Assembly (NCBI GenBank): GCA_938003985.1 | Contig: CALKWZ010000014.1 | Coordinates: forward strand, 1 to 25,271 | DNA length: 25,271 bases | Direction: 5' to 3' | From: an uncultured Verrucomicrobiota bacterium | GTDB taxonomy: Bacteria > Verrucomicrobiota > Kiritimatiellia > CAIQIC01 > Lenti-01 | Part shown: positions 4,466 to 25,271 of the stretch, in pieces | Numbering within the stretch: position 1 is the first letter of the stretch | Layout: every line of letters starts with the position of its first letter | Made by a program: the position numbers and the translations under genes | The notes under the pieces: generated by a model | What the model was told of the DNA's origin: nothing | The model's database searches: none | The model's input: the letters and a program-made list of their open reading frames with translations, nothing else

Positions 4466-5211
4466 GGCGGGCTTGGGGCATCTGCTATTCGCTGGCGTTC
4501 TACCCTCTGCTGGCGGTCTACACCGTGTCGGCGGTGGCGGGGATGACGTTGTGGATGCTCCTCGGCGCGCCGTTCCATTCGCACCGGGGCAACATGCGCC
4601 GCTTTCGCCGCGCGATCATCTGGTACGGCGCAGGGGTCGTCCGGATCGTGGCGCGGCCCGTGCTGAAAACCGTCTACGAATCGCCGCCGCGGGACGTGCG
4701 GATCCCCAAGTTTTTCGTCGCCAACCACGTTTCCTCGCTGGATGCCTTCCTGCTGGCCCTGGTGCCCGAGGAGGGCGTGGAGGTCGTGAAGGCCTGGCCG
4801 TTCCGGTTGCCGATTCTCGGCGTTTTCGCGCGTCTGGCGGGTTTCTTGAACGTCGAGCGGATGGAGCCGGACGAATTCCGGGCGGCCGTGGAGGACCTGC
4901 TGGGCGAGGGCTATTCGATCGTGGTGTTTCCCGAAGGCACCCGCTCCGGCAGCCGGCAAGTGGGACCGTTCCACGGGGCGATGTTCCGCCTGGCGCTCGA
5001 GCTGCGCGTGCCCCTGGTGCCGGTGTGCATCGTCGGCAACGAGCGGACGCCGGCCAAGGGCTCCTGGATCCTGGAACCGGCGACCGTGCGGATGCGCTGC
5101 TTGCCGGAAATGGCGTGGAACGAGTTTAGCCACATGACGCCCTATCAGTTGAAAAACCACGTGCGCCGGCTGATCCAGGACGAAGTGGACCGCATGGGAG
5201 CGACCGCATGA
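4462..5211 (+). CDS. 1-acyl-sn-glycerol-3-phosphate acyltransferase-like protein (PlsC family)
   Basis: ANHVSSLDAF (HX4D) and VVFPEGTRSGS motifs; hydrophobic N-terminus. Confidence 0.88.
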   Translation: MRRAWGICYSLAFYPLLAVYTVSAVAGMTLWMLLGAPFHSHRGNMRRFRRAIIWYGAGVVRIVARPVLKTVYESPPRDVRIPKFFVANHVSSLDAFLLALVPEEGVEVVKAWPFRLPILGVFARLAGFLNVERMEPDEFRAAVEDLLGEGYSIVVFPEGTRSGSRQVGPFHGAMFRLALELRVPLVPVCIVGNERTPAKGSWILEPATVRMRCLPEMAWNEFSHMTPYQLKNHVRRLIQDEVDRMGATA

Positions 5212-6518
5212 AGCCGTTGCCGCAAGACTTCGATCTGGCTTTCCGTTCCGCCGACGAAATCCAAGCCGTGCAGGAGCGGCGGTTGGCCGCGCATCTGCGG
5301 CAGTGCCGTCGCGCGCCGTTCTATCGAAAGACGCTGGCCGGCGTGGCAAAGCCTGCGCTGCGCCGCTTCCCGCTGGAAGCGCTGCGCGACTTGCCGCTGA
5401 CGACCAAAGCCGATCTGGAAGCGCGCAACGACGATTTCCTCGCCGTGCCGCCGGAGACGGTGCGCGACATCGTGCAGTCGTCCGGCACGACGGGCCGTCC
5501 TACGCGGGTGATGTACACGGCGCGGGATCTCGAGCGGCTGGCCTACAACGAGGCGGTCTGTTTCCGGGGCTGCGGCATGGGGCCGGGGGATCGCGTGCTG
5601 CTGACCTGCACGCTGGACCGCTGTTTCGTGGCCGGCTACGCCTACCACCTCGGCGCGCAGGCGGTCGGCGCATGCACGATCCGCAGCGGGCTCAATCTGG
5701 CGGAAGGCCACGCCGCGGTCATCGCGCTGCAAAGCCCGACGTTCGTCGTGGGCGTTCCGGGGTTCCTGCGCAAGCTCGGCAAGCACCTGCACGACCTGGG
5801 CCGGCCGCCGCAGGGCATCCGCGGACTGATCTGCATCGGCGAACCCCTGCGCGACGCGGAATTGCGTCCGACGGCGCTTTCGCAGGATCTGGAGCGCCTG
5901 TGGGGCGCACCGGCGTACTCGACCTATTCCTCGTCCGAAATCGTGACGTCGTTCTGCGAATGCGCCGCGCGGTGCGGCGGCCACGCCGCGCCCGATCTGG
6001 GCATCGTGGAAATCGTGGATGCGGACGGGAACGTCCTGCCGCCGGGGCAGGCGGGCGAGGTGGTCGTGACGCCGCTGGGCGTCGAGGGCATGCCGCTCGT
6101 CCGGTTCCGCACGGGCGACATCGGTTACTTGGCGGCCGAACCGTGCGCGTGCGGCCGGCAGACGCCGCGGCTGAGCCCGATCCTGGGCCGCCGCGCGCAG
6201 ATGCTGAAGATCCGCGGCACCACGTTCTACCCGGCCACCGCGTTCGAGGTGCTCAACGACGTGCCCGAAATCGGCGAATACTATCTCCAGGTCGAAACGA
6301 CGGGCGGGGAGGACCAGGCCAGCGTCCATCTGAGCCTCAGTCCCGACCGGCCCGAGACGCGCCGCAAGATCGAAGACCGGTTGCTGGCGCGCCTGCGCGT
6401 GCGGGTCCAGCTCTGCGTGGAGCCGGAAGACGACGTGCGCCGGCAGGTCTACGTGGCCCATTCGCGCAAACCCATCCGGTTCATCGACCGGCGCGGAACA
6501 ACGGCAGCCAAGGCTTGA
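5208..6518 (+). CDS. AMP-dependent acyl/aryl ligase of the phenylacetate-CoA ligase (PaaK) type
   Basis: VQSSGTTGRPTRVMYT P-loop, YSTYSSSE, RFRTGDIGYLAAEPCACGRQTPRLSPILGR, KIRGTTFYPATAFEVL C-terminal subdomain. Confidence 0.85.
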   Translation: MKPLPQDFDLAFRSADEIQAVQERRLAAHLRQCRRAPFYRKTLAGVAKPALRRFPLEALRDLPLTTKADLEARNDDFLAVPPETVRDIVQSSGTTGRPTRVMYTARDLERLAYNEAVCFRGCGMGPGDRVLLTCTLDRCFVAGYAYHLGAQAVGACTIRSGLNLAEGHAAVIALQSPTFVVGVPGFLRKLGKHLHDLGRPPQGIRGLICIGEPLRDAELRPTALSQDLERLWGAPAYSTYSSSEIVTSFCECAARCGGHAAPDLGIVEIVDADGNVLPPGQAGEVVVTPLGVEGMPLVRFRTGDIGYLAAEPCACGRQTPRLSPILGRRAQMLKIRGTTFYPATAFEVLNDVPEIGEYYLQVETTGGEDQASVHLSLSPDRPETRRKIEDRLLARLRVRVQLCVEPEDDVRRQVYVAHSRKPIRFIDRRGTTAAKA

Positions 6519-6520
6519 TC

Positions 6521-6877
6521 ATGGAAATCCTTGCCATCCATACCAATGAAGCCCGCGTGCGCTTTCCGGCGAACGCACCGTACTTCGCGGGGCATTTCCC
6601 CGGCCAACCCATCGTGCCGGGGGTCGTGCTGATCGACGCGGCGGTCCAGATCGCGGCGCAGGCGACCGCCCGCCCGTTGCGCCTCCTCCGGCTGGCCCAT
6701 GCCAAGTTCGTCCAGGCGGTCGGACCGGATCAGGAAGCCCTTTGGCGTTTCCAGATTGCGCCGGACCCGGACCGTTCGGAATGGCTCAAGGTTTCCGGCA
6801 AGTGGAGCCAAGGCGAGACCCGGATCGCCGAAATGCAATTCACCGCGGCAGACGAAGGAGATCGCGATGGCCCGTAG
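6521..6877 (+). CDS. Hotdog-fold 3-hydroxyacyl-ACP dehydratase-like protein (FabZ/ApeI-like)
   Basis: 118 aa; YFAGHFPGQPIVPGVVLIDAAVQIAAQ motif. Confidence 0.82.
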   Translation: MEILAIHTNEARVRFPANAPYFAGHFPGQPIVPGVVLIDAAVQIAAQATARPLRLLRLAHAKFVQAVGPDQEALWRFQIAPDPDRSEWLKVSGKWSQGETRIAEMQFTAADEGDRDGP

Positions 6878-10296: not shown

Positions 10297-11651
10297 AGAT
10301 CCTGCTGGTCGCCTGCAATCCGGTCGTCGCGCCATACCCGGTCTATCCGCTGGGCATGGCGGTGATCGCCAGCGCCCTGAAGCAGGCCGGCCACGACGTG
10401 CGCCAGCACGACATGCTGGCCGGCAGATTTTCGCTGGATACGCTGCGGGAGGTCTTGGCCGCGGATCCACCCGGCCTGATCGGCGTGTCGTTCCGGAATC
10501 TCGACAACGTGAACGCGTGCAACGAAGCGTGGTACGTCGACCAGCTGGCCGAACTGGTGGCGGCGCTGCGCGCGGCGAGTTCCGCGCCGATCCTGTTGGG
10601 CGGTCCGGGTTTTTCCGTGATGCCGGAACAGGTGCTGGCGGCGTCGGGCGCGGATTACGGCGTGGTGGGGGAAGGGGAACGCCTGGTGGTCGAACTGGCG
10701 GATCGGTTGGCGCGCGGGGAGCGTCCGGAGCAGCGCATCTGGCGCGCCGGGGCCTCGCTGGACGCGGCCGGCATGGCGGCGCCCGCCTACGACGAGGCGA
10801 TTTTGGCTTTCTACCAGGGTTCTGGCGGCGTGACGCCGCTGCAAAGCAAGCGCGGTTGCCCGCACCGCTGCGCCTATTGCACCTATCCGCTGCTGGAGGG
10901 CCACCGGCTGCGCCCGCGCGATCCCGAGCAAGTCGTCGACGATATCGTGGCGCTCCAGGCGCGCGGCGCGAAACAGATCTTCTTCACCGATTCGATTTTC
11001 AACGACCAGGCCGGCCAATACCGCGCGCTGGTGGCGGCCATGCGGCGGCGGGGCGTCCAGATTCCCTGGACCGGATTTTTCCGTCCCGAAATGCTGTCGC
11101 CGGAAATCCTCGCGGACATGAAGGCGACGGGACTGAATTCCGTCGAACTGGGCTCCGACGCGACGTCCGACGCGACCCTGCGCGGCATGGGGAAGGATTT
11201 CACCTTCGCGGAGGTCAAGGCCGTTCATGATCGCTTTCTGGCGGCGCAACTGACGGTATCGCACTATTTCATGATGGGCGGTCCCGACGAAAGCCGCGAG
11301 ACGGTGGAAGAGGGCATCGCCAACGTCCTGCAACTGAAAGGCGCCGCCTCGTTCATTTTCCTCGGCGTGCGGATCCTGCCCGATACGCCCTTGGCCGCGC
11401 GGGCGCTGGCCGAGGGCCTGATCGGTCCCGATACCGATCTGCTGCATCCGATCTACTATTTCTCGCCCGCGCTCGATCGGGATTGGCTGCACGAGCGGTT
11501 GCAGGCGGCGTTCAAGCCCCATCGCCACGTGGTGTATCCGCCGGACGCGATGGACAGCGGTTTGGCCTTTTTGCATCGGTTGGGCTACACGGGCATGTCG
11601 ATCGATCTGCTGCTCAAGCGGGGCGACCGGCGCGGCCAGCGCGCGCAATGA
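10293..11651 (+). CDS. B12-binding-domain-type radical SAM protein
   Basis: SKRGCPHRCAYCTYP (CX3CX2C); N-terminal VACNPVVAPYPVYPLGMAVIASALKQAGHDVRQHDML...PILLGGPGFS cobalamin-binding-like domain. Confidence 0.9.
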   Translation: MKILLVACNPVVAPYPVYPLGMAVIASALKQAGHDVRQHDMLAGRFSLDTLREVLAADPPGLIGVSFRNLDNVNACNEAWYVDQLAELVAALRAASSAPILLGGPGFSVMPEQVLAASGADYGVVGEGERLVVELADRLARGERPEQRIWRAGASLDAAGMAAPAYDEAILAFYQGSGGVTPLQSKRGCPHRCAYCTYPLLEGHRLRPRDPEQVVDDIVALQARGAKQIFFTDSIFNDQAGQYRALVAAMRRRGVQIPWTGFFRPEMLSPEILADMKATGLNSVELGSDATSDATLRGMGKDFTFAEVKAVHDRFLAAQLTVSHYFMMGGPDESRETVEEGIANVLQLKGAASFIFLGVRILPDTPLAARALAEGLIGPDTDLLHPIYYFSPALDRDWLHERLQAAFKPHRHVVYPPDAMDSGLAFLHRLGYTGMSIDLLLKRGDRRGQRAQ

Positions 11652-12936: not shown

Positions 12937-14121
12937 ATGCCTCCGGCCGGCATGAAGGCGGAGATCGCGATTTCAGGTCTGGGCGTCGTGTCCGCGGCGG
13001 GCGGCGACGTGGCCGCTTCGCTCCGGACCTTGCGCGCCGGCCGGCGGCCGGAATGGATCGTCTGTCCTTTCGCCAAGCTGCCCGTGGAATTGCCGATGTT
13101 CGCGGTGCCCGGCGGACCCAACGTCGATCGCACGTTCCATCTGGCCATGCAGGCGGTCGGCCAGGCGCTGGCGGATGCCGGACTCGATTCTTTGCCGGAG
13201 GGATTCCGTCTCGGGGTCTGTCTGGGCACGACTGTGGCGTGCCAGTTGAACGACATTCCGTTCTATGCCGAGTATCGCGCCACGGGCAATCCTTCGCTGG
13301 AACCCGTCGAACGGTTTGCGGCGGGCAGCTTGGCCGAACGCGTCGCGCGGGAAACGCGGGCGACCGGTCCGGCCCTGACCGTGGTGAACGCCTGTTCGTC
13401 GGGGACGGACGCCATGGGCGTGGCCATGGCGTGGCTGCGGGCGGGGCGGTGCGATGCGGTTTTGGCCGGCGGGGCGGATGAATTGAGCCCGATTCCCACC
13501 GTGGGCTTCCATGCGCTCGGCTTGACCAGTCCGGAACCGTGCAAGCCTTTCGATCGGACGCGCCGCGGACTGAACCTGGGCGAGGGGGCCGGCATCGTCG
13601 TGCTGGAACGGGCCGACAGCGCCGTCCGGCGCGGCCGGAAAGGCAATCTGTTCGTCGCCGGGTTCGGCGGCGCTTCGGACGGCTATCACCTGACCGCGCC
13701 CCATCCCGAAGGGCTCGGCTTGGAAATTTCCATCCGCGCCGCTCTGAACGAGGCGGGCATCGAACCCGCCGAGGTCGATTTCGTCAACGCCCACGGCACG
13801 TCGACGCCGGAAAACGACCGCATCGAAGGTGCGACGCTGGCCCGGATTTTCGGGGCCGGAGTGCGGGCCATCTCGACGAAGGGCGCCACGGGCCACACGC
13901 TGGGTGCGGCGGGGGGCATCGAAACGGTGTTTACGGCCTTGGCCCTGCGCGAGGGTTGGATTCCGCCCAGCATTGGTTTCGCGGAACGGGACGAGGGGAT
14001 ACCCTTTGCGCCGTTGACGGAAGTTACGCCGGTCGTCCGGCGGCATGCCCTGTCCACCTCGCTGGCGTTCGGCGGCAACAACGCGGTCGTGGTATTGGAG
14101 CGACGGGAGAATCCGGCATGA
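12937..14121 (+). CDS. Beta-ketoacyl-ACP synthase (KSalpha-like), complete triad
   Basis: VVNACSSGTDAM (Cys), NAHGTSTPEND (His), STKGATGHTLGAAGG (His), STSLAFGGNNAVVV. Alternative start 12952. Confidence 0.92.
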   Translation: MPPAGMKAEIAISGLGVVSAAGGDVAASLRTLRAGRRPEWIVCPFAKLPVELPMFAVPGGPNVDRTFHLAMQAVGQALADAGLDSLPEGFRLGVCLGTTVACQLNDIPFYAEYRATGNPSLEPVERFAAGSLAERVARETRATGPALTVVNACSSGTDAMGVAMAWLRAGRCDAVLAGGADELSPIPTVGFHALGLTSPEPCKPFDRTRRGLNLGEGAGIVVLERADSAVRRGRKGNLFVAGFGGASDGYHLTAPHPEGLGLEISIRAALNEAGIEPAEVDFVNAHGTSTPENDRIEGATLARIFGAGVRAISTKGATGHTLGAAGGIETVFTALALREGWIPPSIGFAERDEGIPFAPLTEVTPVVRRHALSTSLAFGGNNAVVVLERRENPA

Positions 14122-15143
14122 ACCTTGCCGGACTAGGCATCGTGTTTCCCGGCGGAGCGGGCGTGCCCGCGTTGCGGGAGGCGTTGTCCGCCGGCCGCCC
14201 GTTGGTGGGCGAAATGTTGGCCAAAGAACAGGTCCCGGTTTTGAAGGTGCCGGCCGCGGCCCTGACCGGGAATCCCGTGCTGGCGCCGGCCCGGCGGGCG
14301 GATCGCTTCTGCAAGATGACCCTGCTGGCGGCGACGGAAGCGCTGGCCGGCTGCCAAGCGGCGCCGGACCGCATCGGGATCATCCTGGCCACCGCGTTCG
14401 GTCCCCACGGCACGGTGTTCAAGTTCGTGAACGATCTGTTGGAATTCGGCGACGAGCAGGCGTCGCCGACGGTGTTTTCCCAATCCGTCCACGCCGCGGC
14501 GGCCTCGATGGTCGCGGCGGCGGCGCATCTGCACGGTCCGGCGCTGACCGTCGCGGATCTGGCGTTCCCGTTCGAGGAAGCGCTGGCGCTGGCGGATACC
14601 TGGTTGGCCGACGGCCGTTGCGACGCGGTGCTCGCGGGTGCGGTGGACGAAACCTCGGACGTGCTGGCCCACGTGGTCCGGCGCAAATGGGCGCCGGCGC
14701 CCGACGGGATCGCCCGTCCGGCGCAAGCGGGCCAGCCGGCCTACGTGCCCGGCGAGGGCGCCGTGTTCGTGCGCCTGGAACGCGGCAACGGCCCGCTGCT
14801 CACCGTGGCGGATGCGCCGGACGTTTCGGCCGCCGCGAATCTATTCAATGCCGGCGCGCTGGGCGGCGACGACGCGGCGCTCCGCAGGCTGGCGCAATCG
14901 GCCGTTTCCGCGCAAACGTTCGTGTCGCTGCTCGGCAACGTCCGCATCGGCAGCGCCTTCCATTTGGCGGTCGCCGGACTGATGCGCCAAGACGACCGAT
15001 TCTACCCCGACGTGCTGCCGGCGGACCAAACCGGGTTTTCCGGCGGCGGGACCGGTGCGCCCAAGGGACCGATCCAAGTGATTTCCGCATGCGGATCGCG
15101 CGTTCGCGCGATATCGCTCCAGGCGCATGGCGAACGAGGATGA
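14118..15143 (+). CDS. Ketosynthase-like protein lacking the catalytic Cys (KSbeta / chain-length-factor-like)
   Basis: ATGA overlap with the KSalpha-like gene. KS-like LTVADLAFPFEEALALADTWLADGRCDAVLAGAVDE aligns to LTVVNACSSGTDAMGVAMAWLRAGRCDAVLAGGADE of the upstream gene, with Ala149 at the Cys position. Confidence 0.78.
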   Translation: MNLAGLGIVFPGGAGVPALREALSAGRPLVGEMLAKEQVPVLKVPAAALTGNPVLAPARRADRFCKMTLLAATEALAGCQAAPDRIGIILATAFGPHGTVFKFVNDLLEFGDEQASPTVFSQSVHAAAASMVAAAAHLHGPALTVADLAFPFEEALALADTWLADGRCDAVLAGAVDETSDVLAHVVRRKWAPAPDGIARPAQAGQPAYVPGEGAVFVRLERGNGPLLTVADAPDVSAAANLFNAGALGGDDAALRRLAQSAVSAQTFVSLLGNVRIGSAFHLAVAGLMRQDDRFYPDVLPADQTGFSGGGTGAPKGPIQVISACGSRVRAISLQAHGERG

Positions 15144-15144
15144 T

Positions 15145-15399
15145 ATGGCGACGACCCCTGACGAAACGTTGTTGAAGCTGAAGGAACACGTGGCTTTCCT
15201 GCTGGGCGTGGAAGCCTCCGGCATCGCCGCCGACCAACCCCTGCACCTGCTCGGAATCGATTCGATGGGGTTCGTCGATCTGCTGGTGTTCATCGAAAAG
15301 CAATTCGGCCTGTCGCTGATGAACTCCGGCCTGTCCCAGGACGATTTCGCCTCGCTGGCGGTTCTGGCGGGCCGGATCGCCGGGGCCCGGCCATCATGA
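15145..15399 (+). CDS. Acyl carrier protein 3
   Basis: LHLLGIDSMGFVDLLVFIEKQFG phosphopantetheine site. ATG 15145 has SD-like GAGG 5 nt upstream; alternative ATG 15127. Confidence 0.85.
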   Translation: MATTPDETLLKLKEHVAFLLGVEASGIAADQPLHLLGIDSMGFVDLLVFIEKQFGLSLMNSGLSQDDFASLAVLAGRIAGARPS

Positions 15400-16748
15400 A
15401 GGTTCCGAGTTCTTCGCGCAAACGCTACTTGGGCGGAGCCGACTGGTGCGTGGCCGCGTTGCGGCAGGGCACCCTCGAAACCACGGGCAGGCCCATCACG
15501 TTCCACGTGGCGGTTTTCATCGCGGGGCGTCTCGATCCCGCCCGTCTCCAAGGTCGTTTCCAAGACTATTGCGCCCGTTTTCCGCTGCTTTGGGGCCGGG
15601 CCGCCCGCTGCTGGTGTCTGGCCCCGTATTGGAAAAGCCCGGCGAATTCCGCGGAGCGCAAGGCTCCTTTCCGGCACGTGGCGGACGGCGACGCAGCGAC
15701 TCCGGCCGCCGTGGCCCGCCGGATCGAAGAACTGGCCAACGATCCGGATCGTCTGCGCGGGTGCGCCGTTGCGTTGGAATTTCTGCAGGACGCCGCTGCG
15801 GCCGGCGCGCTCGTGTTTTCGTTCGACCATCTGTTGTTCGACGCGGCCGGCGCCGAGCGGTTCATCGACCTGTTCTGTCGATTTGCCGACGGTCGGGCGG
15901 CGGATGCCGAGTTCCCCGATCCGCAGGCGCCGGAGCCGGCGCACCTCGACCAATGGAGCAAGCGCTTCGCCAGCGGGCAGCAACTGAACCGCTCGCTGCG
16001 CGAATTGCTGCCCGGCGCGACCGCCAATCTGGAGTTGCCGGCAAATGCCCGGCGGCGTCCGTTCCGGTTCCGGGTCCTGTCCCTCACGGCGGAGGAAACG
16101 CGCCGCGCGCAGGAACAGGCGTTTGCGACGGCCGGCTACCTGATGTTCACGCCCTACGTGTTGGCCACGGCGGCCGCGACGTTCCAGCCGCGGTTCGCCC
16201 GGCGCGTCGCGCCCAACGCCGACTTCATCGTCACGGTTTCGACCAGCCGCCTGCGGCCGCCCGGCGAGCGCGCGCCGCACGTGTTTTTCAACGATCTCTC
16301 GTTTCTCTATTTCGGATTTCCCGTGGCCGAAGCGGGGGAGCGCGACGAGTTGGCCCGGACCTTGCGCGACCAGATGATCGCGCAGGTCAAGGCGGGCATG
16401 CCCGCCGCCGTAGAGGATTCCAACTTGCTCATGCGGATCTTGCCGCCGCGCGCCTTTTGGAAATTCATGTTCACGTTTTTCCGCAACCGGCTGTCGTCGT
16501 TCGCGCTGACCTGTCTGGGCGATCCCTTGCTCAAGACGAACAGCGTTCTGGGCGGCACGATCCGCACCCACGTCCATTTTCCCGTCATTCCCGTGCCGCC
16601 GGGCTTGGGGCTGATCCTGAACCGCAGCGGCGACGTTTACCACGTCGTGTTGTCCTATTTGGAGGGCGTCCTGTCCGAAGACGAAGTCGCGACGTTGCTG
16701 GACGAATTTCGCCAGCGCTTGCTCAACGGAGCTTCGCCGGAGCCATGA
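15396..16748 (+). CDS. Condensation-domain-like / CoA-dependent acyltransferase superfamily protein
   Basis: 450 aa; FHVAVFIAGRLDPARLQGRFQDYCARFPLLWGR; FSFDHLLFDAAG resembling the HHxxxD active-site region. Confidence 0.6.
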   Translation: MKVPSSSRKRYLGGADWCVAALRQGTLETTGRPITFHVAVFIAGRLDPARLQGRFQDYCARFPLLWGRAARCWCLAPYWKSPANSAERKAPFRHVADGDAATPAAVARRIEELANDPDRLRGCAVALEFLQDAAAAGALVFSFDHLLFDAAGAERFIDLFCRFADGRAADAEFPDPQAPEPAHLDQWSKRFASGQQLNRSLRELLPGATANLELPANARRRPFRFRVLSLTAEETRRAQEQAFATAGYLMFTPYVLATAAATFQPRFARRVAPNADFIVTVSTSRLRPPGERAPHVFFNDLSFLYFGFPVAEAGERDELARTLRDQMIAQVKAGMPAAVEDSNLLMRILPPRAFWKFMFTFFRNRLSSFALTCLGDPLLKTNSVLGGTIRTHVHFPVIPVPPGLGLILNRSGDVYHVVLSYLEGVLSEDEVATLLDEFRQRLLNGASPEP

Positions 16749-17951: not shown

Positions 17952-18494
17952 ATGAAAACATCCCTGAAAACGATCTTTGTTGCGTTGATTGCCGTTGTCG
18001 CCCTCGTTGCCGTCGGATGGGCGGACGAAGTCGTCGGCAAGGTGACCGACACGGGATTCGGATCGTTCATGCTCGACGACGCCGGCACGCTGCGGCAATT
18101 CAATCTGTCTTCGCGGAACACCGCCTACGAGCCGACGAGTTGGCGGCCTACTTCCGGGGATGAAATCCGCGTGGCCTACACGCCCATTCAAAATCGGCGC
18201 GGAACGACGGTCTTGGCGGTGGATCAAGCCACCTTGGTCAAAGCGGGTCCCCACACGCTCGTCGACTTGGCCAGTCCCGTCGAAGTTGAAATCACCGAAA
18301 CGGGCCGCAGCGGCATCCGCGGCAAGATCCCCAGCGGCCAGATCGTGCGGTTCGCCTACGACCGCGGCGTGCAGCGGATCCCGGCCGGCTGGGTGCCCGT
18401 CGTCGGCGAAAAAGCCCGCGTAACCTTCCGTCTGGACGCCGAGCGCGGCTTCACCGTCGGATATTGGGCGCAAAACCTCGAAAAGCTGCCGTAG
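17952..18494 (+). CDS. Secreted hypothetical protein, about 180 aa
   Basis: Clear signal peptide MKTSLKTIFVALIAVVALVAVGWADE; two similar halves suggestive of small beta-barrel (OB-like) domains; SD GGAG upstream. Confidence 0.75.
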   Translation: MKTSLKTIFVALIAVVALVAVGWADEVVGKVTDTGFGSFMLDDAGTLRQFNLSSRNTAYEPTSWRPTSGDEIRVAYTPIQNRRGTTVLAVDQATLVKAGPHTLVDLASPVEVEITETGRSGIRGKIPSGQIVRFAYDRGVQRIPAGWVPVVGEKARVTFRLDAERGFTVGYWAQNLEKLP

Positions 18495-18630
18495 TCGACC
18501 ATTCCGGCCGGTTTCGGGTCTTTTTGCGGCCGGATCGGATTCCGGCGGCCATTGCTAGAATGCCGTTGCGGGCGGGGCGGGTTTGGCATATGTTTTCTCG
18601 ACGCTATTTTTGCCATTTCCGCTGTCCCAA

Positions 18631-20115
18631 ATGAGTTGCGCATCACTATTGTTCGGCCAGGAATTCTCCCCGGAGGAGATCGCCCAAACCAAGGCCGCCC
18701 ATGGCCTCCTGACCATGGAAGTCGAAGTCGGGACGGCCTGCAATTTCCGCTGCAAGTACTGCTACGTCGGCGACGGGAATTCCGTCGGCAACGGCAAATG
18801 CGCGGAATTGTCGCTGGACGAAATCCGCGACGTGATCGGGCAGGCCCAGGCGCTGGGGGCGCGCAAAATCATCCTGCTGGGCGGCGAACCCATGATCTAC
18901 GGTTTCACGCCGGAACTGTGCGAATGGATCCGCGGACGCGGCCTGGGCGTCGAGCTGTTCACCAACGGCACGAACATGACCGCCGAGATGGCCGCGCGGC
19001 TGTTCAAGCTGGGCGTGCACGTGGTCCTGAAATGGCATACCTCCGACCACCAGATCCAGGATTGGCTGGCGGGAGTGCCGGGCGCGGCCGCCATCATGTC
19101 CGACGCTTATCGCCATTTGCGCGCCGCCGGCTATCCCTCGACGGAGGCGAAGATGGCCTTGAGCACGGTGATCTGCCGCCAGAACGTCGCGGAACTGCCC
19201 AGCCTCTGGAAATGGATGCGCACCGAGGGCATCGAGCCGTATTTCGAGATGATCACCCCGCAAGGCCGCGCGCGGAACAGCGCCCACGACCTGTCGCCTT
19301 CGGTCGAAGAAGTCCGGCAGTTGTTCGAGACGATCCGCACGATCGATCGCGACCAATTCGGGCGGACTTGGGAAGCGCAGCCGCCGTTGGTCGGCAATGC
19401 CTGCCTGCGGCACTCGTTTTCCTGCTTGGTGGCGGCCTCGGGCGACGTCATGCCGTGCGTCGGGGTGTCGCTGCCGGTAGGCAACGTCCGCGAGCGGCCG
19501 CTGGCCGACATTTTGGCCGACAGCGAAGTCATCGCCGACCTGCGCGACCACGAAAACACCATCCAGGGCGCCTGCGGCGCCTGCGACAAGGCGGCGACCT
19601 GCTACGGTTGCCGCGGCGCGGCCTTCCAGTTGACCGGCAACTATCTGGGTTCGGATCCGCTTTGCTGGCGCAACCAGGCGGAAACCGTCGATTGCGGCCA
19701 GTTGCCGATCGATGCCGCGCGGCTGGTGCCGCATCAGGCGCCCGCCCGGATGGTCGCGGCGCTGGAGGCGGTGGGCGAACGGACCGCCACGGTTTCGGCC
19801 GTCATCGCGGACGACAATCCCCATTGCCGCGCGGGCCGGCTGGCGGAAGCGGCGCACGTCGAGTTGATGGCCCAGGCGGCGGCCGCCCTGCACGGGTATC
19901 GCTCCGCGACGCGGCCGGAGGCCGCTCCGCAGCGCGGGATGCTGGTCGGCGCCCGCAACCTGGAAATCCATGCGGACGTCCGCGTGGGCGATCGGCTGAC
20001 CGTGCGCCTGCACAAACAGGCCCGGCTCGGCACGTTCGGCGTGATCGACGCGGAAGTGCGCCGCGGCGAAACCGTGGTTTCGAAAGCGGAGCTGAAAACA
20101 TGGCACGCAGGATGA
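18631..20115 (+). CDS. Radical SAM/SPASM-type protein fused to a C-terminal hotdog (3-hydroxyacyl-ACP dehydratase-like) domain
   Basis: VGTACNFRCKYC (CX3CX2C), ILLGGEPMIYGF, Cys-rich SPASM-like CGACDKAATCYGCRG...DPLCW; then LPIDAARLVPHQAPARMVAALEAV...HVELMAQAAAALHGYR...GARNLEIHADVRVGDRLTVRLHKQ...FGVIDAEVRRGETVVSKAELKTW. Start could instead be further in (18712). Confidence 0.82.
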   Translation: MSCASLLFGQEFSPEEIAQTKAAHGLLTMEVEVGTACNFRCKYCYVGDGNSVGNGKCAELSLDEIRDVIGQAQALGARKIILLGGEPMIYGFTPELCEWIRGRGLGVELFTNGTNMTAEMAARLFKLGVHVVLKWHTSDHQIQDWLAGVPGAAAIMSDAYRHLRAAGYPSTEAKMALSTVICRQNVAELPSLWKWMRTEGIEPYFEMITPQGRARNSAHDLSPSVEEVRQLFETIRTIDRDQFGRTWEAQPPLVGNACLRHSFSCLVAASGDVMPCVGVSLPVGNVRERPLADILADSEVIADLRDHENTIQGACGACDKAATCYGCRGAAFQLTGNYLGSDPLCWRNQAETVDCGQLPIDAARLVPHQAPARMVAALEAVGERTATVSAVIADDNPHCRAGRLAEAAHVELMAQAAAALHGYRSATRPEAAPQRGMLVGARNLEIHADVRVGDRLTVRLHKQARLGTFGVIDAEVRRGETVVSKAELKTWHAG

Positions 20116-20744
20116 GCCGTCGGCCACGTCGGATGGCGGGACTGATCTGCGGCCTGCTCGCCGTTCAGGTCTCCCTCGCCGCGGAACCCGCAACCGACGT
20201 CTTGGGTCAGATGGAACAGGCCATGGCGGACGTCAAAACCGTCAAAACCCGTTTCGTGCAGGAAAAGAAGATGGCCCTGTTCAACCATCCGCTGGTCACG
20301 CGCGGCAGCATCTGGGTCGAACCGCCGGAGCACTTGCTCTGGCGGGTGGAAAGCCCGATGCAGTACGCCCTGGCGCTCGACGGCTCCCGCGTCCGGCAAT
20401 GGGACGGCGAGACCGGCAAAACGACCAGCCTGTCCATGGACGGCAATCCCGTCTTCGCCGCCGTCACCGAGCAGCTCAATGCCTGGTTCGGCGGGCGCTA
20501 TGGCCTGCTGGCCCAGGATTACGACGTCGAGCAGCAGGTCGCCGCGCCCGCCACGTTCGTCTTCGTTCCCAAGCCGACCGCGCCGTCCGCGAAAATGCTG
20601 AAATCGGTGACGGTCGTTTTCCGCGCGGACGCGCGCTACATCGCGTCCATCCGGATCGACGACCGCAGCGGCGACGTCACCACGCTGACGTTCACCGAGA
20701 CCGAGATCAACGTCCCCTTGGATCCGAAAGCCTGGGAGCTGTAG
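20112..20744 (+). CDS. LolA-like outer-membrane lipoprotein carrier family protein
   Basis: Signal peptide GLICGLLAVQVSLAAEP; VKTRFVQEKKMALFNHPLVTRGSIWVEPPEHLLWRVESP; ATGA overlap. Confidence 0.82.
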   Translation: MSRRPRRMAGLICGLLAVQVSLAAEPATDVLGQMEQAMADVKTVKTRFVQEKKMALFNHPLVTRGSIWVEPPEHLLWRVESPMQYALALDGSRVRQWDGETGKTTSLSMDGNPVFAAVTEQLNAWFGGRYGLLAQDYDVEQQVAAPATFVFVPKPTAPSAKMLKSVTVVFRADARYIASIRIDDRSGDVTTLTFTETEINVPLDPKAWEL

Positions 20745-23161
20745 TGGCCGGGCCGTTTCGGGACAAGCTGCGGGCGGGTCTGCGGCGGCGGTCGGCCGTC
20801 TTGGGCTTGGTCGCGCTGGTCTTGCTGCTGTCCGCTGCCGCGTTGCCGTTCAGGAGCTTCAACGGGCGCATCGACGTCATGCTGCCGGACCGTTCCGAAC
20901 TGCGGGACGTTTTCGGTTTTCTGCGCGACATCCACGTCGCCGACAAAGTGCTGGTGACGCTTTCCATGCGCGCCGGGACGGTCGATCCCGACGCGTTGGC
21001 CGCGGCGGCCGATGCCTACGTCGCCGGTCTCGATCCGGCCTGGGCCGCGCCTCTGGCGGCGGGGAGCCCGGTTGCCGACGTGGCGGGGGACTTCGACCGC
21101 TTGGCGCGGCGGTTGCCGGACTATCTCGCCGCGGAAGATCTGGCCCGATTGCGCGACGGCGCGGCGTCGGCCGCCGGCATCCGGGCCTCGCTGCAGGCCC
21201 TGAAAAGCCGCCTGCAACGCCCGGAAGGGATGTGGTCCGCCGTTGCCCCCGGAGCCGATCCGCTGGACTGGAACGGCCGGCTGGCGGCGGGCATCCTCCA
21301 TGCGGTGTCCTCCTTCGGCTACCGCGCGGTGCCGGTGGGCAACCATCTGATGGACCCGGAGCGGCGCCATCTGCTGCTGGTGCTGCAAACACCCGTCCTG
21401 ATGACGGATACGGCCCGGGGCCGCGGCCTGCTGGAGCATCTCGCCGCGCGCGCCGCGGAACTGCCGCCGACGGTCGAAGCGCGGCTCGTGTGCGGGCATC
21501 TGCATACCGCCGGCAACGAAACCCTCATCCGGTGGGACGTCCAACGCACCGCGCTGGCGATTTCCGCCGTTTTCCTGGCGCTCTTTTGGGGCGTTTACCG
21601 CGATCCGCGCGCGCTGGCGATCATGCTGATCCCGATGCTGGCCTGCGTGCCCGCGCTGGCGTTGGCGGCGGCGTTTTTCGAGAGTTTTTCCTTCATCGTG
21701 CTCGGGTTCGGTTCGGTGATCGCGGGTATTGCCGTGGATTACGGCATCCATAGCTACGTCGCGGCGCGCAGCGCGCAGCCCGACCGCAATCTGGCGGCCA
21801 TTCGCCGCCCGGTTGCGCTGAGCGCGCTGACCACGCTCTGCGTGTTCATCGCGTTCTGTTTTTCCAGCATTCCGGCCTATCGGCAACTCGGGGCGTTCGC
21901 TTCGTTCGCCATCGTGATTTCGCTGGTGTACGCCTTCTGGGCCTTGCCCCCGTTCGTGCGTCGGCGCGCAACTGCGGTGCCGGAGCCGGTGCCGGCGGCG
22001 AGGGGCAACGGCTCGCGAACGCAGGCCGCCTGGATCGCGCTGGTCGCGGCGGCGGCGTTGGCGGCGGGGATTGGCTTGCTGGCCCGGCTGTCGCTGGATC
22101 CGGACGTTTCCAAACTGGACGGCACGCCGCAAGCGGTTCTCGACGAGGAGGCCCGGGCCATGGCGATCTGGGGCGGGGGGCAATCCATGGCCGCCATCCT
22201 CGTCGTGGAGGCTCCGGACGAGCAGGAAGCCCTACATCTGAACGACCGGCTGTACGAGGATTTGCAGGCCGCCGGGTTGCCGGCTTCCGAAATGTCCAGT
22301 CTGGCACCGCTGTGGCCCTCCGCCGCGACCCGCCAGGCGCGCCGCGCGGCTTGGAACGAAGCGTGGACGGACGAACGCATCGCCGAATTGCGCCGGACGC
22401 TGGCGACGGAAGCCGCCGCGCTCGATTTCTCGGAAGCCGCCTTCGCCGCCTTCTGGGAGCGGTTCGCGGAGTGGCGGGACCTGGCCGCCGAACAGGAGTC
22501 CGTCGGTTTCCTGGAGCCGCTGCGCCGGCAATTCATCCACGCGCAGGACGGCAAGGTGCGCGTGACGACGTTCGTCCCCGACGAGCCGCGCTGGATCGCG
22601 GCGGCCCAGGAGTTGCAACAAGAGCTGGCGGCGCTGCGCGTGATTTCCAGACGGGCGTTTTCGGCGGACTTGTCCGCGGCGGTGCTCGGCGAAATGCTGC
22701 GGACGACGATCTGGGCGGGAACGTTCATCCTGCTTGCGACGGGGCTGGTGCTGCGGCGCGCCGGCATGCTGGCGCTGGCCATCCTCCCGGCCGTGGCCGG
22801 CATGGTCTGGGGCGGGGCGGGCATGGCGTTGTGGGGACTGTCGCTGAACGTGTCCAATCTGGTCGCGGGCATCCTGGTCTTCGGTTTGTGCATCGACTAC
22901 GGCATCTGCATGGCCTATGCCCAGCGGCGCGGGATGCGGCGCGACATGTCCCGCGCGGTGACGCTGTCGGCGCTGACGACGGCGCTGGGCGCGGCGGTGC
23001 TGTTGATCGCCGACCATCCGGCCTTCCTGGCGATCGGCATCACGCTGGTGTTCGGCGTGAGCGCGGGTTACGTCTACGCCCGGTGGGTGTTGCCGGCGCT
23101 GCAAATCCTGTTCCCGCGCCTCAATCCGCCCGATGAATGCGCGGCGGAGGAGGGCGCATGA
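20744..23161 (+). CDS. MMPL/RND-superfamily exporter
   Basis: GTG start overlapping the TAG stop; about 805 aa with two sets of clustered TM segments (e.g. ALAIMLIPMLACVPALALAAAFFESFSFIVLGFGSVIAGIAVDYGIHSY and VSNLVAGILVFGLCIDYGICMAYA). Confidence 0.9.
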   Translation: MAGPFRDKLRAGLRRRSAVLGLVALVLLLSAAALPFRSFNGRIDVMLPDRSELRDVFGFLRDIHVADKVLVTLSMRAGTVDPDALAAAADAYVAGLDPAWAAPLAAGSPVADVAGDFDRLARRLPDYLAAEDLARLRDGAASAAGIRASLQALKSRLQRPEGMWSAVAPGADPLDWNGRLAAGILHAVSSFGYRAVPVGNHLMDPERRHLLLVLQTPVLMTDTARGRGLLEHLAARAAELPPTVEARLVCGHLHTAGNETLIRWDVQRTALAISAVFLALFWGVYRDPRALAIMLIPMLACVPALALAAAFFESFSFIVLGFGSVIAGIAVDYGIHSYVAARSAQPDRNLAAIRRPVALSALTTLCVFIAFCFSSIPAYRQLGAFASFAIVISLVYAFWALPPFVRRRATAVPEPVPAARGNGSRTQAAWIALVAAAALAAGIGLLARLSLDPDVSKLDGTPQAVLDEEARAMAIWGGGQSMAAILVVEAPDEQEALHLNDRLYEDLQAAGLPASEMSSLAPLWPSAATRQARRAAWNEAWTDERIAELRRTLATEAAALDFSEAAFAAFWERFAEWRDLAAEQESVGFLEPLRRQFIHAQDGKVRVTTFVPDEPRWIAAAQELQQELAALRVISRRAFSADLSAAVLGEMLRTTIWAGTFILLATGLVLRRAGMLALAILPAVAGMVWGGAGMALWGLSLNVSNLVAGILVFGLCIDYGICMAYAQRRGMRRDMSRAVTLSALTTALGAAVLLIADHPAFLAIGITLVFGVSAGYVYARWVLPALQILFPRLNPPDECAAEEGA

Positions 23162-23835
23162 AACGGTTGCGGACCGGAGTCATGGTTATGGCCGGGCTGT
23201 GGCTGACGGGGTGCGCGACGGCGCCGTTCCAGCGGCCGGAACCGTTTGCGGCGACCGGACTCGCGCCGGAACGGGTTCCGGCGGCTTTCGCGGAACGCTT
23301 GGCGCCGCGCTACGAACAAGCGCAAGCTCTCGTGTTTCGCTTCTATCTGCGCGAAATCGCCGCGCTGGGCTATCTCTCCGTGGACGTGCCCGCCCGCTCG
23401 TTCGCGATGGCCTGCCTGAATCCGGTCGGCATCAAGTTGTTCGAGCTGGTCGGAACGAACGGCGAAGTCGAGGCCCGGTTCGTCGCGCCGGAAATCGAAA
23501 AGCACGGCGGCGAACTGGCGCAAGCGGCGGGGGCGGACTTGGCGCGGGCCTACTTCGATTGGCTGCCGCCGGCCGGCGCGACGTGCCGCCGCGCTAAAAA
23601 CCGGCTGATTTTCACCGCCGCGGATGCCGCGGGGCGCACGGAATACCGCTATGCCGGCCGCGACGGGTTTTTGGCCGAAAAAATCCGCATCGAAGCCGGC
23701 CGCGTTCGCTGGAAGGTGGACTATCGCGATTATCGCCGCGGCGCGGAGGGCTGGATCCCGACCGGACTGGTGATCCACAACCGGCGTTATGGCTATCGCC
23801 TGGTCGCCATCGCGAAAGAGTCGGAGGCTCCATGA
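23158..23835 (+). CDS. Predicted lipoprotein (DUF3261-like, as found in APE loci)
   Basis: Lipobox MAGLWLTGCATAP; ATGA overlaps at both ends; RNRLIF-type beta-rich body ending in GLVIHNRRYGYRLVAIAKE. Confidence 0.65.
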   Translation: MKRLRTGVMVMAGLWLTGCATAPFQRPEPFAATGLAPERVPAAFAERLAPRYEQAQALVFRFYLREIAALGYLSVDVPARSFAMACLNPVGIKLFELVGTNGEVEARFVAPEIEKHGGELAQAAGADLARAYFDWLPPAGATCRRAKNRLIFTAADAAGRTEYRYAGRDGFLAEKIRIEAGRVRWKVDYRDYRRGAEGWIPTGLVIHNRRYGYRLVAIAKESEAP

Positions 23836-25271
23836 AAGTCCTGTTGGTGCGCCCCCATCTGATCCTGGCGCTGTCGCGCCGCTTCAATGCTTTCCTGCAT
23901 CTGGAGCCGTTGGATTTGGAGATCGTCGCCGGCGGCGTGGAAGCGCCGCACGAGGTGGAAATCCTGGACCTGTCGCACGGCCGGCGGCCGTTCGCCGCGC
24001 TGCGGCGGAAACTGCGCGACATGCGGCCGGATCTGGTGGGCTTCGGCTGCTACTCGAACCAAGCGGCGGCGGTGCGCGAGCTGGCTGGCCTCGTCCGGCA
24101 AGTCCTGCCGACCGCGAAGATCGCGGTGGGCGGGGTCCACGCCAGCATCGCGCCGCAGGACCTGAACCGGCCCGAATTGTACGATTTCGTGGTGCGCGGG
24201 GAGGGCTCCGTGGCCATCCGCCGCCTGCTGGCGGCGCTGGAGCGGGGCGCGGCCATCGCCGACGAAGGCGTGCTGCCCGTCGGCGCGCCCGAATTCGCCG
24301 CCTTGGCGGAAGGACCGCCGCCGGCCCATCCCGACTACCGCGAAGTGGCCAAGCCCCGCCGGGACTTGGTCGATCGCTCGAAGTATTTCTGCATCTGGTC
24401 CGGCAAGCCGGATGAAAGCCTGGCCACGCTCTATCCGCGCACGGCGTCCATGCGCACCAGCGTGGGCTGTCCGCGGCGGTGCAGCTTCTGCGTCGTGCAT
24501 TTCCTGGCCCATGGGCGCTATATCCAGCGGGATCCCGCCGACGTCGTGGACGAAATCGCGTCGATCCCGGAGGATTACGTCTATTTCGTGGACGACGAAA
24601 TGTTCATCAATCCCGTGCGCGCCGAAGCGATCGCGCGCCTGCTGCTCGAACGGGGCGTGCGCAAGCAGTACGTCAGCTGGGCGCGCAGCGACACCATCTG
24701 CGCGCATCCGGAGCTGTTCAAGCTGTGGCAGCGGGCCGGCCTGCAAGTCGTCTACGTCGGGTTGGAATCGATGGAAGCGGATGCCCTGAAAAACTTCAAC
24801 AAGGGCGTCGATCCGGACACCAACCGCCGGGCCGTGGCGATCCTGCGCGAGGCCGGCATCGTGCTGCATTCGGCGCTGATCGTGAATCCCGATTTCACCC
24901 AAGCGGATTTCCAGCGGCTGCACCGGACGGTCGCGGCCATCGCGCCGGCGGAAATGTCCTTCACGGTGCTGGCGCCGTCGCCGGGCACGGACTTCTGGCG
25001 GGAAACCCGCGCGCGGTTCATCGCGCCCGATCCGTACGCCTTCTACGACTGCATGCACACGCTGTTGCCGACGCGCCTGCCCATGCGCACGTTCTACCGC
25101 TATTTTTCGCTGCTGTACCTGCGCGGATTCCAGCACAATCCCTGGCGCGCGCACCGCGTGAAGGTGCCGTTCCGGGATCTGCTGCGGCTGATGTGGAGCG
25201 GAGCGCGCACCGGCTGGACCCTGCACGGGCTCCACCGCGATTATCCGCCCGAAGCCCGCGCGGCGTGCGGG
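23832..25271 (+). CDS. B12-binding-domain-type radical SAM protein, truncated by the window edge
   Basis: Open frame of 480 codons to the edge, missing from the supplied ORF track. MKVLLVRPHLILALSRR...LVGFGCYSNQAAAVRELAGLVRQVLPTAKIAVGGVHASIAPQD; RTSVGCPRRCSFC (CX3CX2C); VVYVGLESMEADALKNFNKG. Confidence 0.88.
   Translation, partial: MKVLLVRPHLILALSRRFNAFLHLEPLDLEIVAGGVEAPHEVEILDLSHGRRPFAALRRKLRDMRPDLVGFGCYSNQAAAVRELAGLVRQVLPTAKIAVGGVHASIAPQDLNRPELYDFVVRGEGSVAIRRLLAALERGAAIADEGVLPVGAPEFAALAEGPPPAHPDYREVAKPRRDLVDRSKYFCIWSGKPDESLATLYPRTASMRTSVGCPRRCSFCVVHFLAHGRYIQRDPADVVDEIASIPEDYVYFVDDEMFINPVRAEAIARLLLERGVRKQYVSWARSDTICAHPELFKLWQRAGLQVVYVGLESMEADALKNFNKGVDPDTNRRAVAILREAGIVLHSALIVNPDFTQADFQRLHRTVAAIAPAEMSFTVLAPSPGTDFWRETRARFIAPDPYAFYDCMHTLLPTRLPMRTFYRYFSLLYLRGFQHNPWRAHRVKVPFRDLLRLMWSGARTGWTLHGLHRDYPPEARAACG

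Follow-up and report, generated by a model that had tools for sequence, protein, structure and literature searches.

What does a radical S-adenosylmethionine (rSAM) enzyme gain from being joined, in one polypeptide, to a dehydratase-like fold? The question is raised by a gene in a 25,271-nucleotide stretch of DNA from an uncultured Verrucomicrobiota bacterium (contig CALKWZ010000014.1; "the window" refers to this whole stretch), whose 494-amino acid (aa) product combines an rSAM core, a SPASM domain and a C-terminal hotdog domain. The protein is probably a three-cluster rSAM/SPASM enzyme that carries the ApeP-type subunit of a heterodimeric 3-hydroxyacyl-acyl carrier protein (ACP) dehydratase, and its rSAM part would act on an ACP-bound intermediate. 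A preliminary description of the locus had already proposed a single polypeptide uniting rSAM/SPASM and FabZ/ApeP-type hotdog parts, and analyses with Pfam, AlphaFold2 (AF2) and Foldseek bore this out. The gene and the regions of its product are:

18631..20115, + strand: rSAM/SPASM/ApeP-like hotdog fusion gene, 494 aa and a TGA stop (open reading frame [ORF], G+C content at third codon positions [GC3], Pfam domains).
18724..19194, + strand: radical SAM core, aa 32-188 (PF04055, E 2.4e-19; CX3CX2C and GGEP motifs; Foldseek).
19402..19665, + strand: SPASM domain, aa 258-345 (PF13186, E 1.1e-7; eight Cys; two auxiliary [4Fe-4S] clusters predicted).
19666..19701, + strand: linker of 12 residues between SPASM and hotdog, WRNQAETVDCGQ, forming the fusion junction (alignment columns 347-357 poorly conserved).
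19702..20112, + strand: ApeP-type hotdog domain, aa 358-494, 137 aa (sequence match to 6qsr_B, Foldseek, column counts, FabZ/ApeP alignment).

The frame is open without interruption from 18583 to 20115, and the gene starts at the ATG at 18631, in agreement with independent gene calls on other contigs and with the N-terminus of the family alignment. Its GC3 of 0.84 is typical for coding frames in the window, which has a G+C content of 66-72% and many spurious long ORFs on both strands. The AF2 model of the 494-aa protein, built from a 43-sequence alignment, had a mean pLDDT of 89.2 and a pTM of 0.89, scores that imply a defined two-domain arrangement. Both parts are of known kinds, and the three Pfam domains are already present in public annotation pipelines; databases name the relatives simply "radical SAM protein" or, for fragments, "predicted hotdog family dehydratase".

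In a Pfam profile search, the N-terminal part matched Radical_SAM (PF04055) with 70.5 bits against a gathering cutoff of 29.5. The CX3CX2C motif (CNFRCKYC, aa 37-44, nt 18739-18762) contributes C37, C41 and C44 and is followed by GGEP at aa 84-87 (nt 18880-18891); the three cysteines and G84-P87 are invariant among 43 aligned homologues. The SPASM match (PF13186, aa 258-319) scored 32.5 bits against a cutoff of 21.5. Seven of the SPASM cysteines (C258, C276, C315, C318, C324, C327 and C345) are invariant in the same alignment, and the eighth, C265, is at least 90% conserved. This pattern of residues, with the seven to eight Cys (CX2CX5CX2-3C among them) that mark a SPASM domain for two auxiliary clusters, identifies a SPASM-type rSAM enzyme with three predicted Fe-S clusters. 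When the first 350 residues were compared to the PDB with Foldseek, SkfB, BlsE, SuiB, PqqE, CteB and anSME were matched, the first four with a probability of 1.00, and a sequence search of the PDB returned SkfB and PqqE as the sole matches. The best NCBIfam match of the rSAM part was the heme b synthase AhbD (E 3e-40; 138.7 bits against a cutoff of 500), and NirJ2 (109.8 against 500), MftC (99.3 against 265) and PqqE (91.5 against 381) scored lower. Membership in the AhbD, NirJ, MftC or PqqE equivalogs was rejected, with every score far under its curated cutoff; the rSAM part falls in no curated NCBIfam family, and AhbD, NirJ2, MftC and PqqE are only its nearest neighbors. With the SPASM enzymes SkfB, PqqE, MftC, AhbD/NirJ, anSME, SuiB and CteB it has in common the CX3CX2C and GGE motifs, the full set of SPASM cysteines and the fold, but it has neither a recognition element (RRE) of the kind found with peptides synthesized ribosomally and modified post-translationally (RiPPs) nor a peptide context, and a C-terminal hotdog has been described for none of the named enzymes.

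The C-terminal segment (aa 358-494) appears in the AF2 model as a long central helix (residues 406-425) enclosed by long strands. Foldseek aligned it to FabZ structures with TM scores of 0.78-0.82 (target) and to ApeP (6qsr_B) with a TM score of 0.74 at 22% identity; the same ApeP chain was its top sequence match in the PDB (E 1.7e-4 over 134 residues). The segment is thus predicted, by model and by structural comparison, to fold as a hotdog domain, as the preliminary description had supposed. The landmarks given there (CX3CX2C, GGEP, the SPASM-like cysteines, LVPHQAPARMV and VELMAQAAAAL, with a 137-aa segment from about nt 19701) were all found in place. Its further statement that both catalytic residues of the dehydratase are kept did not hold.

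In Escherichia coli FabZ, the catalytic pair consists of a His within GHFPG and a Glu within LILEAMAQ. In FabZ/FabA catalysis, the His and the Glu/Asp are supplied by both subunits of the dimer (PMC10139942). The window hotdog was aligned with E. coli FabZ, ApeP and ApeI of E. coli CFT073 and Xenorhabdus ApeP, and its columns were counted in 117 family members with 48-92% identity. His368 (19732-19734), within LVPHQAPARMV, aligns to the non-catalytic His of an N-terminal motif (LPHRFPFLL in FabZ, YLPH(D/E)AP in ApeP) and is His in 72 and Gln in 45 of the 117 sequences; both analyses led to its rejection as the catalytic His. The GHFP segment that would hold the catalytic His is missing, through a deletion of 4-5 residues that the ApeP proteins of E. 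coli and Xenorhabdus share. No family member has His at the aligned position 403 (R45/T34/V10/A8). Glu411 (19861-19863), in VELMAQAAAAL, is conserved in 117 of 117 sequences, and three further residues on the helix of the active site, Gln415, Ala418 and Gly422, do not vary either; position 398 (F72/H41) and position 409 (Y58/H50/F8) vary. A self-sufficient dehydratase of the FabZ/FabA type is recognized by a GHFP(G) His about 14 residues ahead of the catalytic Glu/Asp, and assignment to that type was rejected: the central-helix Glu is present and the His is deleted. Because the GHFP His is deleted while Glu411 is kept, the hotdog is, as judged from its sequence, half of an active site: an ApeP-type half-site with Glu and without His.

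A candidate for the other half is encoded elsewhere in the window:

6521..6877, + strand: ApeI/FabZ-like small hotdog, 118 aa, FAGHFPGQPIVPGVVLID (His25, Asp39) (FabZ, ApeI 6qsr_A and NCBIfam FabZ matches).

The product, whose sequence includes APYFAGHFPGQPIVPGVVLIDAAVQ, carries GHFPG and matched FabZ (1e-6), ApeI 6qsr_A (1.9e-3) and the NCBIfam FabZ model (3e-9). The gene had been overlooked in the preliminary description; it begins 3 nt past the stop of an AMP-dependent ligase gene and is masked by a spurious 524-aa ORF (5303..6877). A search of the window for further ApeP/FabZ genes found no dehydratase-type hotdog besides the fusion domain and this product. ApeI-like orthologues were found at 25 loci, with the His kept in all 25; where the acid would stand, most have Gln or a different residue, and Asp39 of the window protein is an exception. 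The gene lies near 20 of 27 fused loci, and most of the remaining loci are truncated by contig ends. Conservation is therefore complementary: the small protein preserves the His, and the fused domain preserves the Glu. The same division was seen in a search with the hotdog domain against 1.84 billion representatives, where the best 150 matches comprised 46 rSAM-fused proteins, about 91 free-standing proteins and 13 ApeP-like--ApeI-like didomains (examples P0163, P0167 and P0197, about 290-315 aa); of the two halves of these didomains, the N-terminal one retains the Glu and the C-terminal one GHFP. One such didomain (L018, 5216-6139, + strand) lies in a second, tandem (paralogous) copy of the cluster that lacks an rSAM/SPASM gene. 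The dehydratase heterodimer that ApeI and ApeP form has one active site, and an ApeH-ApeI fusion occurs in Acinetobacter baumannii (PMC8041823). The product of 6521..6877 is expected, from these residue patterns, to be the partner that gives the catalytic His.

These features suggest how the protein may work. Keeping the Glu411 half-site and lacking the catalytic His, the hotdog domain would be unable to dehydrate alone; by analogy to ApeI:ApeP, we infer that it pairs with the 6521..6877 product, whose GHFPG would provide the His, in a FabZ-like heterodimer, both chains contributing to its single active site. This pair would be the only dehydratase of the cluster, and the fusion would fasten the radical enzyme to the dehydratase of the elongation cycle; it is because the rSAM domain is fused to one member of the sole dehydratase pair that its action is placed at this step. 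An ACP-tethered intermediate bound at the dehydratase, 3-hydroxyacyl or 2-enoyl (polyenoyl), would then be the substrate of the rSAM domain. A 5'-deoxyadenosyl radical would abstract a hydrogen atom, and a two-electron oxidation or C-C bond formation would likely follow by way of the two auxiliary clusters. SPASM auxiliary clusters usually take away an electron following hydrogen atom abstraction, and further desaturation or formation of an intramolecular C-C bond is therefore most likely, with neither favored. A precedent for radical chemistry at this stage comes from the rSAM cyclopropanases Jaw5 and C10P, which work with an iterative polyketide synthase (PKS) and modify enoyl intermediates made by the PKS dehydratase during chain growth (PMC13459092). 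Jaw5 and C10P are HemN-like, however, rather than SPASM enzymes, and they are separate proteins, unfused to a dehydratase.

The fusion itself is real, widely conserved and old. Gene calling gave the identical 494-aa protein on at least 10 contigs, which come from at least 3 ENA samples. In a homologue search of 5.8 billion proteins, the best 120 matches were all full-length (48-92% identity, about 485-505 aa) with the same three Pfam domains. A second search, seeded with a distant protein from a Ca. Brocadiia-class metagenome-assembled genome (MAG), returned 1,544 clusters at E<=1e-100, of which the best 120 were all fused; no named anammox genus was found among the carriers in this search, and in place of one there is only the Ca. 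Brocadiia-class MAG. Among species-representative genomes, both parts lie in one ORF at 27 loci. The hosts are Lentisphaerota (including cultured Victivallis vadensis DSM 14823), Omnitrophota, Nitrospirota/Thermodesulfovibrionia, Planctomycetia, Phycisphaerales, the Ca. Brocadiia-class MAG and other MAGs of the PVC group (Planctomycetes-Verrucomicrobia-Chlamydiae), "Deltaproteobacteria" and Pseudomonadota. At locus L044, the rSAM and hotdog parts are adjacent separate genes, with the junction exactly at the linker. Separate genes or an assembly error had been named at the outset as what could undo the fusion; the split locus and the unfused homologues described below belong to minority lineages and do not speak for a misassembly. 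In a rough neighbor-joining tree, the unfused clade is nested within the fused radiation, and this nesting suggests one fusion event followed by later loss. Two proteins, P0062 (727 aa) and P0133 (720 aa), are triple fusions (rSAM-SPASM-hotdog-LolA) with a LolA-like carrier at the C-terminus. In a Victivallales MAG that falls inside the fused clade, the gene (L041, 3917-4954) stops after the SPASM domain, and the 1.7 kb of contig left had no hotdog match; either a misassembly or a secondary loss could account for this.

The surrounding genes, all on the + strand, place the fusion in ACP-dependent chain building by machinery resembling type II PKS and fatty acid synthase (FAS) systems. The cluster contains three ACPs, three ketosynthase (KS) genes with a chain length factor (CLF)-like gene, a short-chain dehydrogenase/reductase (SDR) with the role of a ketoreductase (KR), a thioesterase, acyltransferases and LolA/MMPL/DUF3261 export genes, and the ACP-linked setting proposed in the preliminary description is supported by the ACPs, the KS genes, the KR and the thioesterase. 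The neighbors most relevant to the fusion are:

5208..6518, + strand: AMP-dependent ligase, ApeH/FlxY-like (PF00501; NCBIfam FlxY, 385 bits; synteny).
20100..20744, + strand: LolA-like carrier, ApeL equivalent (PF03548, E 2.8e-14; gene call in L082).
20744..23161, + strand: MMPL/RND-like exporter, ApeM equivalent (weak PF03176, E 0.0048; synteny; E. coli L-M-N order).
23137..23835, + strand: DUF3261/LolB-like lipoprotein, ApeN equivalent (PF11659, E 0.002; synteny).
9031-10296, 10293-11651 and ~23901-25271+, + strand: three B12-binding rSAM genes, the second of which is TIGR04072.

The window begins with genes for an SDR/KR, a CrtD-like desaturase, a KS, an ACP, an acyltransferase, the FlxY/PaaK-like AMP ligase, the ApeI-like hotdog, a 4HBT thioesterase and a KS, and continues with two B12-rSAM genes, an LpxL-like acyltransferase, an ACP, a KS with the CLF-like gene and an ACP. 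Then follow a 450-aa protein, an FAD oxidoreductase, a small secreted protein, the fusion, the LolA-like, MMPL-like and DUF3261 genes and the third B12-rSAM gene. The order common to most genomes across phyla is SDR-phytoene desaturase-KS-ACP-acyltransferase-AMP ligase-[fusion]-LolA-MMPL-DUF3261-ApeI-thioesterase-KS-KS'-B12-B12, so that the fusion gene is in most other genomes directly 3' of the AMP-dependent ligase gene. The block of fusion, LolA, MMPL and DUF3261 (18631-23835), whose usual position is between the AMP ligase and the ApeI-like gene, has been relocated in the window and in its closest relative, L001, compared to loci L003-L017. The LolA-like gene, whose first nucleotides lie within the 3' end of the fusion gene, follows the fusion directly at nearly all loci. 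The second B12-rSAM gene (10293-11651) passed the TIGR04072 model (rSAM_ladder_B12) with 577.8 bits against a cutoff of 360.

Several observations weigh against an ApeP-type subunit whose fusion directs the radical enzyme to an ACP-bound intermediate. The match to Pfam ApeP-like (PF22817.2, aa 362-445) was sub-threshold, at 14.1 bits against a gathering cutoff of 27 (E 0.035); the precomputed PF22817.3 annotation lists ApeP-like, with no weak mark, for the exact protein and its best 120 homologues. His398 and His409 are extra histidines near the active-site helix and might in principle replace the base in this sub-clade. The nearest named rSAM families (AhbD, NirJ2, MftC and PqqE) use tetrapyrroles or peptides, not lipids. 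Finally, close orthologues in Desulfobulbaceae, Desulfatitalea, Desulfobacter and Allochromatium palmeri, which form a clade with 50-55% identity in the rSAM part, are unfused and stop after the SPASM domain, and no ApeP-like sequence was found within +-10 kb of them, even at E<=10. The radical chemistry can therefore do without the tether, which is an optimization and not a requirement.

The same orthologues, which imply that the hotdog is accessory to the radical chemistry, would suit a hotdog that serves as a docking or substrate-recognition module, similar to the RRE of peptide-modifying SPASM enzymes, holding the acyl chain or the ACP for the rSAM domain with no role in dehydration. The missing catalytic His agrees with such a module, and the pTM of the model points to an interface that is fixed between hotdog and catalytic domain. 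The reading is nevertheless unlikely: a pure scaffold would hardly account for the invariance of Glu411 and Gln415 across the 117 sequences (48-92% identity), the natural ApeP-ApeI didomains retain the same Glu, and the conserved ApeI-like His subunit would be left without an ApeP partner in the cluster.

The heterodimeric dehydratase with an attached radical enzyme can be taken one step further. The rSAM domain could be a station in an iterative type II PKS/FAS cycle, where each 2-enoyl-ACP made by the ApeI/ApeP-type site would undergo hydrogen abstraction and ring closure or C-C bond formation before the next elongation. This would be the stepwise "type c" logic proposed for the formation of ladderane-like rings, with no enzyme candidate (PMC10139942). 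This extension is quite unlikely to be correct as it stands; if true, it would mean a new cyclized or cross-linked outer-membrane lipid in anaerobes.

An alternative places the rSAM domain outside the elongation cycle, as an oxidative decarboxylase of the AhbD kind or another enzyme of late tailoring that acts on the released lipid and makes, for example, polyunsaturated hydrocarbons, with the fusion incidental. AhbD is indeed the top NCBIfam match, Desulfotalea psychrophila has a syntenic cluster of this class together with unusual polyunsaturated hydrocarbons (PMC2649909), and the unfused orthologues include Desulfobulbaceae relatives of that organism. We consider this improbable. The AhbD score reaches 139 of the 500 bits needed, a thioester-bound chain is not decarboxylatable, and a stable fusion to a dehydratase subunit in more than 1,500 clusters argues for ACP-bound intermediates. 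Very improbable is a self-sufficient dehydratase or isomerase that combines Glu411 with a His of the same chain: the window sequence does carry His at 368, 398 and 409, but none of the three is conserved in the column counts, His368 belongs to the non-catalytic LPHR motif and GHFP is deleted. An assembly or frameshift artifact, or a RiPP maturase that has nothing to do with the lipid genes, for which the resemblance of the N-terminal part to peptide maturases of the SkfB, PqqE and MftC type and the small secreted ORF just upstream (17952-18494) might speak, is effectively refuted by the identical protein on multiple contigs and samples, the 27 fused loci in many phyla and the family of more than 1,500 clusters in the one case, and in the other by the lack of an RRE domain and of conservation of the upstream neighbor, whose place in the canonical order is taken by the AMP ligase.

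Among characterized systems, the dehydratase pair proposed here most resembles ApeI:ApeP of the aryl polyene (APE) type II PKS (PDB 6QSR; c1188/c1196 of E. coli CFT073). The hotdog fold, the deletion of the GHFP His and the retained Glu are common to both, and both systems encode a small His-bearing protein of the ApeI type. Known ApeP proteins are free-standing and about 150-180 aa long, whereas the ApeP-type domain of the window is the C-terminus of an rSAM/SPASM enzyme, with about 22% identity. The ApeH-ApeI fusion of A. baumannii (PMC8041823) and the natural ApeP-ApeI didomains show that subunits of this dehydratase are readily joined to other pathway enzymes or to each other; what is joined there is either an acyl-ACP synthetase or the other hotdog, whereas in the window it is an rSAM enzyme. 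The clusters are also alike. The E. coli APE cluster has the AMP ligase, thioesterase, LolA, MMPL, DUF3261, KS/CLF and KR genes and the same H-I...K-L-M-N...P logic. The APE core set comprises ApeC/O/R (KS/CLF), E/F (ACP), H, I, K, L, M, N, P and Q, with no rSAM enzyme, and its product is an aryl polyene; the window holds homologues of H, I, K, L, M, N, P, Q, KS/CLF and the ACPs, plus four rSAM genes. The three B12-rSAM, the CrtD/phytoene desaturase-like and the FAD oxidoreductase genes set the window apart from APE clusters, which are without them.

In gene set and carrier phyla, the window cluster corresponds to the "ladderane-type" FAS-like clusters marked by TIGR04072 (Kuenenia kuste3335-3352, Desulfotalea psychrophila). 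This class was first noted in 2009 in Kuenenia and Desulfotalea (PMC2649909), and the antiSMASH label "ladderane" has since been attached to such clusters in many non-anammox phyla, with no function assigned (PMC9902471). Ladderane production is not known from the non-anammox carriers. The class is distinct from the anammox-exclusive cluster of Dietl et al. A 2026 review lists ladderanes (hypothetical) and Jaw5 as the only ketoacyl lipids thought to be rSAM-modified, and leaves the rSAM-SPASM-hotdog architecture unmentioned (PMC13459092). A literature search for this architecture found no paper describing or testing it, in keeping with the preliminary description, in which no characterized enzyme was known to have it.

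Almost no rSAM enzymes are known that act on ACP-tethered fatty-acyl or polyketide chains. In the family described here, covalent joining to half of a dehydratase points to both the substrate, an ACP-bound intermediate, and the partner, the ApeI-like gene; an in vitro reconstitution can therefore be designed. The family comprises more than 1,500 clusters and sits in orphan "ladderane-type" or APE-like lipid/polyene gene clusters of anaerobes that genome mining has recurrently reported, with product unassigned, from Desulfobacterota, Planctomycetota, Verrucomicrobiota/Lentisphaerota, Omnitrophota and Nitrospirota. Cultured carriers include V. vadensis DSM 14823, with a fused gene, and A. palmeri DSM 15591 and Desulfatitalea alkaliphila, with unfused genes.

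Some further features of the window were recorded. The third B12-rSAM gene (~23901-25271+) is HpnR/BchE-like, scored under cutoff and runs past the window end. The 450-aa protein at 15396-16748 (+ strand), between the ACP and FAD oxidoreductase genes, had no Pfam or NCBIfam match; it is conserved, with 410 bits in L001 and 118 bits in L055. The gene at 17952-18494 (+ strand), which only in this lineage (also L082-L084) stands directly upstream of the fusion, encodes a 180-aa protein with an N-terminal signal-like segment and no family match; it is not part of the canonical order. The stop and start codons of the KS (12937-14121, + strand) and CLF-like (14118-15143, + strand) genes overlap; the CLF-like protein gave a weak match to AmcG of cispentacin biosynthesis (31 bits against a cutoff of 80), and the ORF at 14045..15175, in another frame than the CLF-like gene, is spurious. 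A 515-aa antisense ORF (18646-20193, - strand) spans the entire fusion gene; its translation is Arg/Gly/Pro-rich, it is a high-G+C artifact, not a gene, and most genes of the window are likewise shadowed by antisense ORFs.

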